64,000 nt of DNA from a phage. The notes under the pieces are model-generated. The model had not been told where the DNA came from, did no database searches, and worked only from the letters and a program-made list of their open reading frames with translations. Numbering within the stretch: the stretch's first letter is position 1; every line of letters starts with the position of its first letter. The stretch is from sequence record NC_100372.1; one strand, given 5' to 3'. This document shows positions 33,358 to 39,974 of this stretch, in pieces. A program made the translations under genes and the position numbers.

Positions 33358-33573
33358 ATGAAAATAGAAATATTTGGTGGGGCTGACAACACTCGTGGCC
33401 TGATTTACCTTGAATTCGATGAATCTTACCTGCCAGAGGTGTTAAATATAGATGCTGTTGCGGAAGCCCTTGATGTAGACCCTAAAGATCTCTACTCCCG
33501 TGCTGAGATTGATGGTTGGGAAGAGACTCTGAACATTGATTTCAGTGAAGTAGTAGATGAACCTTTGGACTGA
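33358..33573 (+). CDS. Hypothetical small acidic protein (MKIEIFGG start)
   Basis: ATG after AGAGGAG RBS. Confidence 0.45.
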   Translation: MKIEIFGGADNTRGLIYLEFDESYLPEVLNIDAVAEALDVDPKDLYSRAEIDGWEETLNIDFSEVVDEPLD

Positions 33574-33936
33574 CACACAAGTCTGCTTTGCAGGTTTAGC
33601 TGCTCAGCTAAGGTTCTGGAGTCACCTATAACATCTTCCAACTAAATTTCCTACCAACACAGTTACTTACCCACCACACATGACTGTTTGCTTGTTTAGT
33701 GAGCAGTCATCCCTTGACATTCTTGCCTATCTTGATAAAATTAAGTTCTTCTCTTTTCTTTTACCGAGTAATTCGGGTTTTCTGTTCTCTTCGGTTTGAA
33801 GGGGTATGGAGATACACCTGAGTGAACAGGGTGAACAACCGAACCTTTAGCTATGGCATTAGCATGGCGAAGCGGACGGGTGACGAAAGAGGGGCCGGAG
33901 GACACCAGTCACTGCCATATAGTATATGGGTGATAA

Positions 33937-34476
33937 CCTGAAGAGTCTGAATAAGTGTTTAAGTACCAGTCAGAGGAAAAGGTGAATGGTAGCCGAAGGG
34001 GGAGGGGGGTTTCTTATATCTTTAATTTGTATACTTTATATACACTTGTAAACCAATTCAATTAGGATCTGTTTACCACACAAAGTGGATGGAGACAAAT
34101 ATCACCTATTAAACTTGAATTATTTATAGAAAATACCACAACACCGCTTAAGTCTTTGATTTTACACACAAATCTTACAAATATCCTACCTCCATATTTA
34201 ACATACTTGTAACATATTCCATATCCTACCTGCCTGATCAATTTACTCCCACCACATTCCCACATTTTCCCTGTCTGTACTACCCCACCCCCGCCGGGAG
34301 TCCCGTCATATCTGGCTTTCCAGCAAATATCACACCCACAAATATCATCACCTGAAGAGGGTTTCATCCCATAATACCTGCCTTACCTGAAGAGCGCTTC
34401 ATACACCACCTAAATTTTTTAATTGACCCCTCCCCGCCGCCGGAGAGGTTGGCTTTTCCCACACAGGCCTGAAGAG
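33937..34476. repeat. Four dispersed copies of CCTGAAGAG (about 33937, 34351, 34386, 34468)
   Basis: Read directly from the sequence. Confidence 0.6.
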
Positions 34477-34491
34477 TCAGCCAGAAATATC
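34097..34491. repeat. Five copies of AAATATC(A/C) in a CA-rich stretch
   Basis: Copies near 34097, 34179, 34325, 34340, 34485. Confidence 0.5.
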
Positions 34492-35023
34492 TGAACAGGT
34501 CCAGTTATGCCCCGATTTTGTGCTTGTCCTACAGGAGTGCTGCCCTGTCAGGAGCCGGTAGCGACTGGAGTGCTGCCAGGCGGACGGAATGGGAATACTT
34601 CTCATTTTTATAATAATTCTCAAATATCGAGGCAGTGAGGCAAATTAATAGGCCAGGCCGTTCACACAGTGGCACAACATTTGCAATCTATCTTGTGGGA
34701 GTGAATGAGAATACCTATCATTGTGAGAATGGTTATCATTACGGGCAATTTAACATAATACCTATTATGCGCACCACTGGCGATACATACAGGGATTGAT
34801 AACATGGGTTACTGTTTACGCACATAACAATTATATTTATTACTATTTGTGTGGGATATAGTTAGCAACCAATAGATTAGATATTGACCTGCAGACTTCT
34901 GACCGTCCAGACGTCTAAACGCCCACACAACAAGGATTATACATACATTCCTGAATGTAAACAGGGCCGCAAAAAATGCTACCATACCAGTTTGTAAATT
35001 TTTCATGCAGCACTTGACAAAGA

Positions 35024-35107
35024 GGAGAAAAACTTGTCTGACACAATGTGACAAAATTGCCACTTTTGACACTTTTACCTTTGACACAATATGACACAAT
35101 AACGGCT
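35024..35107. repeat. Array of TTGACA/TGACAC hexamers including three TGACACAAT
   Basis: Six TGACA(A/C) within 85 bp. Confidence 0.6.
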
Positions 35108-35136
35108 GTTACTATTCCATATCTCACTGTTTACGT

Positions 35137-35190
35137 ATAGACTGTTTACGCCTGAATAGTTTACGCCCAAACTGTTTACACAGAGATGAT
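35137..35190. repeat. Tandem CTGTTTAC(G/A) iteron-like repeats x4 (further copies near 34812 and 35583)
   Basis: actgtttacg, actgtttacg, tagtttacg, actgtttaca in series. Confidence 0.6.
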
Positions 35191-35202
35191 AAGCCATGAC
35201 AT

Positions 35203-35432
35203 TCGTTTGCATGAAAACAATTAACAAGTTAATAATATATGACATAATATAAAAGCAGGGCAACTATTAGAAGATCTATAGTTGCCTTGCTTGTTATGTC
35301 ATGATTAACTAAATACAAGGCAACTATGATCTGAATAATAGATTGCAGAAAAACTATCACGGGGGTGATTGTTACTGCTTTTATATTATGTCGCGACTCC
35401 GTCGCGCCATGCCATTCGTTTGCATAGTTGCC
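35203..35432. repeat. Nested symmetry block: 20-bp direct repeat, 15-bp perfect inverted repeat, four GGCAACTAT copies
   Basis: Direct repeat GCCATGNCATTCGTTTGCAT at 35203 and 35406; inverted arms GACATAATATAAAAG at 35251-35265 and 35378-35392; GGCAACTAT at 35269 and 35329 with reverse complements at 35288 and 35424. Confidence 0.65.
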
Positions 35433-36039
35433 TTATTGTTACAGGTAAAACAATTACATTATTAATTATTTCTTATCTTTCTCTTAGTCATCTAATGATT
35501 CCAGTCAGTATAGTAATGTACAGTAAACATTAGACGACTAAAGATTTCTCTGTGTATAATAACTTATCGTGACAATTTCGAACTGTTTACGAAAAATGTT
35601 GACACCTGAGCTGATTTATGTTATGCAGTTTACACGAATAATTATTTTATGCAGGTATTGACTATTCCGTTATTCTGTGGTTGGAATAAATACTTTGCAG
35701 ACTATAGAATGGCGTGCGTACGTGAATTCTGAGATCTGGCGGCTATAGTTATACTCGATTTTTCGCGTAGAACACGCTTTCGATGCTGTGTAAGTGTATG
35801 ACTTATAAAGATTTTTAGTTGTTGACAAGATATTGGAGATGTGCATCAGGTTAAAATTTGTGCAATAGCGGCATTACGTGCACTTTTGGGAGAGAAAACG
35901 GGTAAAAATGGCCCTGCTACCACACAATGAAAGATTATGCAATGGTTATTTTCCATGTATATTTGTACAGTATGTGGGATTGATGGCTAGTCAATTATTC
36001 CACTTGCCAGGTAGGGCCGTTTATGGTAGGAGAAGAGCA

Positions 36040-36068
36040 GACAAAAAGAAAGGGGCCTTTAAGCCCCT
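36040..36068 (-). terminator. Intrinsic terminator for the leftward block (AAGGGGC-loop-GCCCCTT with U-run on the minus strand)
   Basis: Hairpin followed on the minus strand by TTTCTTTTT, just downstream of gene 36088..36507. Confidence 0.5.
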
Positions 36069-36087
36069 TGATAATTCAGTTAAGAAA

Positions 36088-36507
36088 TTATAATGATTCG
36101 TATATTTCAAAAATCCGATTTGCCAGGTCGTTACGGTAGCGGAATTTTTCATCGCGCTTGATCATTAAATCCTTATAGCCGTACTCTTTAAGCACTTCAT
36201 TAACTTTATAGCGGCATACCTGCATATTATCTTGAGCGTCACCAATAAACTTGTTGCTGTGGTGCATTGCTTTAATTTCTTCTTCCAGGACCAGGGCAAC
36301 TACCCGGACCGGATCAAGCTGGTAGGCGGTAACATCTATGCGGCATTGTAGACGGCTTTTAACGTCTGCCACCGGATATACTGCAACCTCTTCCCCGTCA
36401 ACATTGACAATAATTAGTTTACCATCGATTTCGAATCCTTTCGCCGCCGGACCGTGACAAAAAGCGTTATCAAAGCTATATGCCGGATTATCAGATTTAA
36501 TGTTCAT
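36088..36507 (-). CDS. Hypothetical protein
   Basis: ORF with upstream promoter. Confidence 0.5.
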   Translation of the reverse strand: MNIKSDNPAYSFDNAFCHGPAAKGFEIDGKLIIVNVDGEEVAVYPVADVKSRLQCRIDVTAYQLDPVRVVALVLEEEIKAMHHSNKFIGDAQDNMQVCRYKVNEVLKEYGYKDLMIKRDEKFRYRNDLANRIFEIYESL

Positions 36508-36651: not shown

Positions 36652-36915
36652 TTATTTGTTGCTCATCCAGTTTTCCCAAGCTGCCTGATAATCTGCCTCA
36701 CTACGGCGGATCTCTTCTTGTTCTTCAAGCCGGATCTCTTCTTCCAGGTACCCCAAGATATCGGCTTTTTTGGTCTGGCGTAACATCCAATCGTCTTTTT
36801 TGCGAGTAAAGATCTTGTACGCTTTCTCGCAAACTTCTTTTTTGCTACCTTTTTGGACTTCAAGAATTCTGTAAGCCATGTACTGAACTAGTTTGAGCTG
36901 GTCAAGACGTTTCAT
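36652..36915 (-). CDS. Hypothetical protein
   Basis: ORF. Confidence 0.5.
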   Translation of the reverse strand: MKRLDQLKLVQYMAYRILEVQKGSKKEVCEKAYKIFTRKKDDWMLRQTKKADILGYLEEEIRLEEQEEIRRSEADYQAAWENWMSNK

Positions 36916-39215: not shown

Positions 39216-39566
39216 TTATTTTGCATTATTTCCTATATTGCCGCTACGGTACCAGCGTTTACGGTGAAAATGGTAATAATCGCCATCGGCATTGAACATC
39301 AGATGGTTTTCAATAACCAGCTTACGAAGGTGGGCCGGATCTTGTTCCATTCTTGCCAGACTCTGGCGGCTGTTACGTAAGCGGATAAATTCCATATTCA
39401 GGCCGTTGATTGCAGCATGGATGTCAAAGTAACCACCTTTGAGACGTTCACGCATGGCGTTAATCTCAACACAATATACAGATTTCTCACAAATCAAGGT
39501 ATTAGCCAGGGCGCGGACCTGGGCAAGGGGGTTAAGCTCATTAAGGTAATATAGTTTTACTTTCAT
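39216..39566 (-). CDS. Hypothetical protein
   Basis: ORF. Confidence 0.5.
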   Translation of the reverse strand: MKVKLYYLNELNPLAQVRALANTLICEKSVYCVEINAMRERLKGGYFDIHAAINGLNMEFIRLRNSRQSLARMEQDPAHLRKLVIENHLMFNADGDYYHFHRKRWYRSGNIGNNAK

Positions 39567-39583
39567 AAAATAACCTGCTGAAA

Positions 39584-39883
39584 CTAGTTTGAGAAAACAT
39601 CGTTCACAATAGCGATCACAATGCCGTTCACCTTGTCACGGTCAACAATGCACAAATCGCCATAGATCATGTGGTAGTCTGGATGATCTTTCACGGAATA
39701 ATCAATGAGTGTTTTCTTATCGTCCAGCTTACTAACTTCCATTCTCATAACGATATGAGAATCATCAAAGGCATTATTCCGAAAAGTCATAACCTGACCG
39801 CCAGGGCACCCGGTGATCTCTACTTCCACGCCGTCTACGATCTGACCATCAAAGAAATAAAGATTATTAGCCTGGATAAACAT
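39584..39883 (-). CDS. Hypothetical protein
   Basis: Start moved to the ATG 8 nt after AAGGAG. Confidence 0.5.
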   Translation of the reverse strand: MFIQANNLYFFDGQIVDGVEVEITGCPGGQVMTFRNNAFDDSHIVMRMEVSKLDDKKTLIDYSVKDHPDYHMIYGDLCIVDRDKVNGIVIAIVNDVFSN

Positions 39884-39974
39884 GATCATTACTCCTTTTT
39901 GCACTGATTATTTTAACAGGGTTTAAATTTACTTTATTGATGGCCCTGGAGTCAAGGCCATCTAAAAATAAATT

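Follow-up and report, generated by a model that had tools for sequence, protein, structure and literature searches.

Short direct-repeat arrays abut the terminal repeat of rV5-like phages and may assist genome-end processing or packaging

Introduction

What might a phage do with two different arrays of short direct repeats that stand one behind the other in DNA carrying no genes? The question is raised by a locus in the stretch of phage DNA that we analysed at its full length of 64,000 nucleotides (the window). A preliminary description of this DNA, made from its letters, had noticed the two repeated motifs and offered three readings of them: a promoter cluster, an iteron-type origin or a protein titration site.

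The region belongs to a large family of similar sequences. In a megablast search, segment 34300-36100 matched 120 phage records, nearly all of them Escherichia phages of the genus Vequintavirus (rV5-like); coverage of the query is 80% or more in 103 of the 120, identity being mostly 90-97%. On the strength of its sequence we assign the window to an rV5-like myovirus, genus Vequintavirus. Phages of this kind are used for typing and therapy, and most of their about 120 sequenced genomes have been deposited as if circularly permuted.

The arrays lie in a gene-free gap of ~2.5 kb (~33.6-36.09 kb), with plus-strand genes on its left and minus-strand genes on its right. The gap is the same locus as the grey "non-coding" box that the published rV5 map shows between ORF163 and ORF164. 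The rV5 paper described that box as lacking ORFs and expected bidirectional terminators there, which were not found; its skew analysis gave no origin. It treated the genome as circularly permuted and described neither a terminal repeat nor the arrays. In the rV5 sequence (DQ832317), both arrays are present in the same gap, together with the direct terminal repeat (DTR) element discussed below.

Results

Array A occupies positions 35039-35101 on the plus strand and is built of six head-to-tail units of the (T)GACAYAAT type with a period of 9-10 bp, one unit being about one helical turn. In order, the units read TGACACAATG, TGACAAAAT, TGCCACTTT, TGACACTTTTACCTT, TGACACAATA and TGACACAAT. Exact TGACACAAT occurs at 35039, 35082 and 35092; the three other units are degenerate, and of the exact copies just the last two follow each other without a gap. 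Array B starts ~25 bp past array A and spans 35125-35184 on the same strand, where four ACTGTTTACR units (CACTGTTTACGTATA, GACTGTTTACGCCTG, AATAGTTTACGCCCA and AACTGTTTACACAGA, in this order) follow each other with an exact period of 15 bp. The core CTGTTTACG is exact in the first two units (35127 and 35142) and carries one mismatch in the other two (35157 and 35172). The two tandem motif arrays of the preliminary description are thus real, with three exact copies of the one motif and two exact plus two one-mismatch copies of the other, and the additional exact copies of CTGTTTACG that it had placed at about 34812 and 35583 were found as claimed.

These motifs are not spread through the genome. 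The window holds four matches to CTGTTTACG versus 0.31 +/- 0.54 expected, and none of 100 shuffled sequences reached four. For TGACACAAT there are three matches versus 1.06 expected, and 8 of 100 shuffles reached three; this count alone is unremarkable, but all three copies fall within 62 bp. Of the eight copies of CTGTTTAC in the 64-kb window, seven sit in the 2.5-kb gene-free gap. In the genome of ECP26, which is 97% identical, a scan of the remaining 74.5 kb found neither CTGTTTACG nor TGACACAAT nor a cluster of either core. The array motifs are therefore confined to one locus in ~138 kb, with single copies elsewhere only within the same gap, and this confinement argues for a local function rather than a dispersed regulatory motif. 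The units also call to mind DnaA boxes and half-sites of PhoB, PhoP, OmpR, TyrR and LexA; these likenesses were set aside for misfits in spacing or core bases.

The sequence that precedes array A is an end of the genome in other records. Phage EdH4 and the unrelated isolate YN3 carry an exact direct repeat (459 and 458 bp, respectively) at both ends of their records, and these end repeats map to window positions 34579-35038 with 95.4% identity. A terminal redundancy of 458 bp has been published (Korf 2019). The 460-bp element fills positions 1-459 of the records of Gotham (where it is annotated as repeat_region), ECP2309, HdK5, EdH4 and YN3, each of which holds another copy at its other end; it stands at the very end of ECP2303 and, reverse-complemented, at the very start of Pr121LW. 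Altogether, seven public records from several laboratories start or end exactly at the boundaries of this element, which is 92-98% identical in 13 relatives. Taken at face value, the records mark both DTR boundaries as physical genome ends and the packaged DNA as linear with an exact DTR. Window segment 34579-35038 would accordingly represent the DTR (458-460 bp) in single-copy form, as in a concatemer junction or a circular assembly. The left cut falls between ...GTGCTGCCA and GGCGGACGG, the right boundary between ...AAAACTTGTC and TGACA. The first unit of array A begins at 35039, the first base after the DTR. With their start precisely at this inner DTR boundary, the arrays point first to end formation, packaging or terminal replication.

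Judged by these records, the genome ends conflict with two published views, namely that of the rV5 paper, which took the genome to be circularly permuted, and that of a 2026 paper, which inferred headful packaging for another member of Vequintavirus; neither agrees with exact terminal repeats in seven records. Most of the ~120 Vequintavirus records begin at arbitrary points, with a single internal copy of the 460-bp element. Placing the true ends in the "non-coding" box gives these phages correct genome coordinates.

Single units of the array B type are scattered through the DTR and the next 600 bp. Inside the DTR, a copy of CTGTTTACG lies at 34812-34820 on the plus strand, its core conserved in 13 relatives with one variable column, and an inverted unit, GTAAACAG, at 34957-34964 on the minus strand, with a conserved core and variable bases immediately upstream. 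Beyond the arrays follow an inverted B-like unit, GTAAACAT, at 35523-35530 (minus strand), which is invariant in the 13 relatives, another plus-strand CTGTTTACG at 35583-35591 with a conserved core and a variable upstream flank, and the B-like unit CAGTTTAC at 35626-35633. Among the 13 relatives, the cores of the single B units show 0.23 minor alleles per column versus 0.69 in their flanks, a difference that is not significant in a permutation test (484 of 5000 random sets equal it, p ~0.1).

An alignment of 13 genomes shows where the gap is free to change. Identity is 90-100% in each 50-bp bin with the exception of 34489-34588 and 35039-35238, and both of these poorly conserved stretches lie immediately outside the two DTR boundaries. 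Since hypervariable sequence occurs only just outside the boundaries, variability appears to be tied to the ends. On the left, the outer flank at 34489-34578 has an identity of 0.66-0.69 with indels, in surroundings of at least 0.9. Insertions in it vary, and the boundary motif GGAGTGCTGCC is duplicated (34534 and 34567). There is no regular tandem array to the left of 34579; besides the duplicated boundary motif, CCTGAAGAG occurs four times there at irregular spacing. On the right, array A is the least conserved stretch of the whole gap, with an identity of 0.49 and many indels. The four copies of CCTGAAGAG, at 33937, 34351, 34386 and 34468, share one orientation within the kilobase before the DTR, and copies are also seen in the corresponding flanks of two phages from sister genera, KPP-1 and A5-4. 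The sequence CCTGAAGWGTCAGCC is common to the window and KPP-1.

Do related phages keep the arrays in spite of this variability? We compared 16 related genomes, of which 13 are phage records and three are contigs, one viral and two metagenomic. The contigs came from exact-pattern scans of viral and metagenome collections with the conserved DTR end, which returned one and two usable relatives, respectively, and one chance match. The preliminary description had made its proposal depend in part on conservation of the repeat units in related phages, and both arrays are indeed present in 16 relatives. In 16 of 16, arrays A and B keep their position, order, orientation and type of unit, and their copy number varies. 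Array A invariably starts with TGACAY at +1, directly after ...CTTGTC, and comprises about 3-9 units spaced 8-11 bp apart, next to a DTR of 458-460 bp. Array B consists of about 4-10 units of CTGTTYACR at 15-16-bp spacing; in the GenBank record of isim, its counterpart is marked merely as a "repeat_region". All A and B units point one way in the 16 relatives, and in all of these genomes the array zone closes with a conserved box, GATGATAAGCCATGNCATTCGTTTGCAT, at a distance of 113-226 bp from the DTR end. The drift in copy number and unit sequence suggests either weak constraint or a mutational hot spot.

In two phages of sister genera, KPP-1 with its published DTR and A5-4, reached through its ORF165 homologue, the arrays are missing. 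Klebsiella phage KPP-1 (Mydovirus) has a published 514-bp DTR, classed as T7-like by PhageTerm. Its boundaries resemble those of the window, with the cut between ...GGTGCTA and GACGGACAG at one end and directly after TTGACAAGGAGAGAGAATTGTGT at the other; in phage A5-4, similar boundary motifs can be recognized, by eye only. The DNA similarity of these sister genera to the window is otherwise almost nil, and tandem arrays of the A or B type are absent from both KPP-1 and A5-4. As far as these alignments go, the boundary motifs are the conserved core and the arrays a Vequintavirus-specific accessory. Given that both phages lack the arrays and that KPP-1 keeps homologous boundary motifs and a DTR of similar size, the arrays are not a core determinant of end formation in the subfamily.

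In the window, the conserved box that closes the array zone reads GCCATGNCATTCGTTTGCAT (35193-35212, plus strand) and has a second copy at 35406-35425. It is followed at 35213-35245 by array C, which is made of variable YTAACAAG-type units of 7-8 bp on the plus strand and contains 22% G+C; this array is hypervariable and reaches ~8 units in EduardKellenberger. The two copies of GCCATGNCATTCGTTTGCAT form a 20-bp direct repeat (35193-35425) that brackets 193-274 bp of nested inverted repeats, namely four occurrences of GGCAACTAT/ATAGTTGCC plus a perfect inverted repeat of 18 bp at 35241/35375. Some relatives have extra GC-rich hairpin inserts between the two copies of GCCATGNCATTCGTTTGCAT. FV3 has one copy of the GCCATGNCATTCGTTTGCAT box, and the whole bracketed segment is missing, a state that implies either that the segment was deleted between the repeats or that it was inserted and its target duplicated.

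Terminator-like structures surround the arrays. A strong hairpin followed by a U-run lies on the minus strand (35292-35253; -25.7 kcal/mol, z = -7.6), and further terminator-like hairpins were found at 33764-33776 (plus strand) and 36069-36050 (minus strand). Minus-strand terminators to the right of the DTR end have been annotated in two relatives, at ~300-335 bp in Murica and at ~215-255 bp in Alma. The hairpin at 35253-35292, as predicted from its sequence, would shield the arrays and the DTR from leftward transcription. With such hairpins on its flanks, the array zone is probably free of read-through.

The remainder of the gap and its neighbourhood were screened as well. The ~850 bp of gene-free DNA at 33639-34488 are 90-100% identical in 13 relatives, several 50-bp bins scoring 1.00, and exceed many coding parts in conservation. 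On the plus strand, they include a sigma-70 promoter close to consensus at 33714-33741 (TTGACA-16-TAAAAT with TG), followed by the hairpin and T-run at 33764-33776. This segment could encode a small or long non-coding RNA or be a dense protein-binding region; RNA folding of 33748-34012 gave a z of -1.85 only. The window had no Rfam match at the gathering score and 33500-36150 none at E <= 1, nor was a tRNA found. In the small ORFs that surround the gap, Pfam and PHROGs scans revealed no DNA-binding or initiator domain, and ten neighbouring ORFs matched no Pfam family. One of the neighbours, the 87-aa homologue of ORF165 (36652-36915, minus strand), is called "DNA translocase FtsK" in several records. 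We rejected this name, as it lacks Pfam support and the protein falls into a PHROG of unknown function; the label is probably a propagated annotation error.

Discussion

We propose, at a probability of about 40%, that the arrays are a genus-specific platform for protein binding which assists end processing or packaging. The arrays, lying on the inner side of the left genome end, would bind several copies of one protein at the junction. The protein could be the recognition subunit of the terminase or another end-processing factor, and the assembled platform may help in positioning the cut or nick by which the boundary 35038/35039 is defined, or in starting packaging there. Its place would be that of the CCTAAAG array in T7, and its role would be like that of the cosB and pac repeats for small terminases. 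The suggestion of the preliminary description that proteins bind the arrays fits repeats that are real, non-random and conserved; the binding itself, the identity of the binder and its part in end formation or packaging we infer.

Recognition repeats for the small terminase are well known beside the cut in other phages, as in the R sites of lambda cosB, the pacL and pacR boxes of SPP1 and the pac hexamers of P1. The present arrays share with them that repeated short elements adjoin the position of the cut, array A directly abutting 35038/35039, and the near-helical phasing of array A would suit the wrapping of DNA on an oligomeric protein. In contrast to cos or headful systems, however, packaging here would involve an exact DTR, and the copy number of the repeats is highly variable. 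In ECP26, the gene annotated as large terminase lies at a distance of ~46 kb.

Repeat arrays flanking a terminal repeat are of a known but poorly understood kind, and the closest likeness is to T7. On the T7 sequence we verified a terminal repeat of 160 bp, an array of ~13 CCTAAAG units with a 13-bp period that starts at +15, and a looser array before the right repeat. The two T7 arrays are said to have been named SRL and SRR by Dunn and Studier in 1983. We know of no established function for them, so that the analogy carries position and not mechanism; a literature search returned nothing usable on T7 array function or on the transcriptomes of rV5-like phages. What the two phages have in common is an exact short DTR, an array of short head-to-tail units in one orientation that starts 0-15 bp from the inner edge of the left repeat, a gene-free zone, and the possession of a family A polymerase together with a gp4-type primase/helicase. 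The unit sequences, in contrast, are unrelated (CCTAAAG at 13 bp versus GACAYAAT at 10 bp and CTGTTTACR at 15 bp). The rV5-like locus has two or three different arrays in series and no regular mirror array on the other flank, its DTR measures 460 bp instead of 160 bp, and the virus is a 137-kb myovirus.

A role in end processing or packaging has to be weighed against several alternatives. The proposal that the TGACA units act as stacked -35 hexamers of a sigma-70 promoter cluster has little left to recommend it. TTGACA-like hexamers do occur at 35015, 35066 and 35081, but a sigma-70 consensus scan found no -35/-10 pair at 16-18-bp spacing within 35039-35190, and the whole gap is not enriched in promoter-like sites (14 versus 10.5 +/- 3.2 in shuffles). 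There is, moreover, no gene to transcribe, and the number of units varies between genomes. We thus regard promoters as extremely improbable, and consider it more likely that the arrays serve genome-end formation, packaging or replication. Only slightly better are the prospects of a regulator, be it from the phage or the host, whose winged-helix protein would occupy head-to-tail half-sites for regulation or for its own sequestration. Head-to-tail direct repeats are typical of OmpR/PhoB-type binding, and the motifs here are conserved also at single sites; the core of A on the reverse strand (TGTCA) and that of B (TGTTTA) may resemble half-sites of PhoB and PhoP. However, periods of 10 and 15-16 bp disagree with the 11-bp spacing of OmpR/PhoB-type boxes, and no copy of the motif occurs elsewhere in the genome. 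No regulated gene is close by, because the zone sits between convergent terminators, and we hold this explanation to be very unlikely. The arrays might, on the other hand, do nothing at all. If slippage or duplication outside the DTR accompanied end processing or recombination, they could be a mutational by-product tolerated as functionless filler. Consistent with this, the two outer DTR flanks are the only hypervariable parts of the gap, the left one bearing boundary-motif duplications and variable insertions; a third variable micro-array, C, follows the other two; the units are degenerate; and sister genera do without the arrays. Yet in all 16 genomes the same two families of units persist despite turnover, unchanged in order and orientation, conserved single B units stand in a non-repetitive context, and the period of array A equals one helical turn. 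We find a mere by-product unlikely, though not implausible.

Two further alternatives invoke replication. At iteron-type origins, such as lambda ori and the iterons of plasmids and of P1 oriR, an initiator would bind the direct repeats and open adjacent AT-rich DNA. In keeping with such an origin, the repeats have one orientation and are followed by the conserved box and then by a stretch of 22% G+C at 35200-35249 (itself a variable micro-repeat). The motifs are unique in the genome, and no kilobase of the window is poorer in G+C than that at 35-36 kb (0.353). The phage has genes for a family A polymerase of its own and for a primase/helicase like T7 gp4, and the rV5 authors could not locate an origin. 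The details fit less well. Units of 9-10 bp with periods of 9-11 bp (A) and 15-16 bp (B) differ from iterons of 17-22 bp in helical register, and no initiator-like gene adjoins the arrays. The sole relaxed DnaA boxes of the gap are at 34160 and 35551 and its sole IHF consensus at 34149, none of them at the arrays, where scans for GATC and Chi likewise found nothing. Cumulative GC skew has a peak here and no minimum, albeit confounded by convergent transcription, and the copy number differs 2-3 fold between near-identical phages. For the origin postulated in the preliminary description, the AT-rich stretch after array B would be suitable; unit length and phasing, the missing initiator gene, the distribution of DnaA and IHF sites and the polarity of the skew speak against it. 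We consider an origin unlikely, though still a live alternative. The other alternative sees in array A a cluster of start sites for a gp4-like primase on the strand whose 3' end lies at the left terminus. The last lagging-strand primer would then be placed immediately inside the repeat, so that the whole repeat is left single-stranded for the annealing of concatemers. GTGTC is a strong recognition site of the T7 gp4 primase, and it is the reverse complement of the array A core. Nowhere in the 64 kb are such sites packed more densely than in array A, where four fall within 70 bp, all of them on the bottom template, and the first 200 bp to the right of the DTR contain seven GAC and no GTC. T7 shows mirror polarity: its left array has five strong sites on the bottom template, and another five, on the top template, precede the right repeat. 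The window itself encodes a 693-aa primase/helicase of PHROG 239, the helicase half of which matches T7 gp4 (E = 8.5e-16). On the other side, the GTGTC specificity is borrowed from T7 gp4 and may not be that of the rV5-type primase, there is no mirror cluster on the other flank of the DTR, many A units of relatives lack GAC (for example GGCAC and AACAT), and array B goes unexplained. That array A is a recognition cluster for a gp4-type primase strikes us as a long shot, and it would be just as bold to say so of the T7 arrays, to which the same polarity test extends the idea.

Abutting a physical genome end is the defining property of the arrays. The rV5-like phages offer a natural series of variants, in which the boundary sequences are constant and the arrays beside them vary between about 3 and 10 units, and this series lets one ask what the DNA beside a terminal repeat does. 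If the arrays bind terminase, or prime the last Okazaki fragment, the answer would also bear on the unexplained arrays of T7. The primase explanation, if true, would give a function to T7 arrays that have been known for decades, and would tie the length of the terminal repeat to the placement of primase sites. In the T7 segments 1-700 and 39300-39937, the strong gp4 sites of the terminal arrays are strictly polar, with none on the opposite strand within the arrays.

The DTR has conserved elements of its own. Two adjacent TGAGAAT-N3-TATCATT sites are found at 34706-34740 (also 34590-34606). Their arms are conserved and their 3-bp spacer varies freely among relatives, as in an operator-like footprint, and TGAGAAT-like motifs occur in the terminal repeat of KPP-1 too. 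At 34748-34782, ATTTAACATAAWAC...TTATRCGCAC is the sole non-coding island of the gap that can still be aligned with A5-4. It is visible by eye in the terminal repeat of KPP-1 and lies mid-repeat in all three genera, making it a candidate for a conserved recognition element of the terminal repeat.
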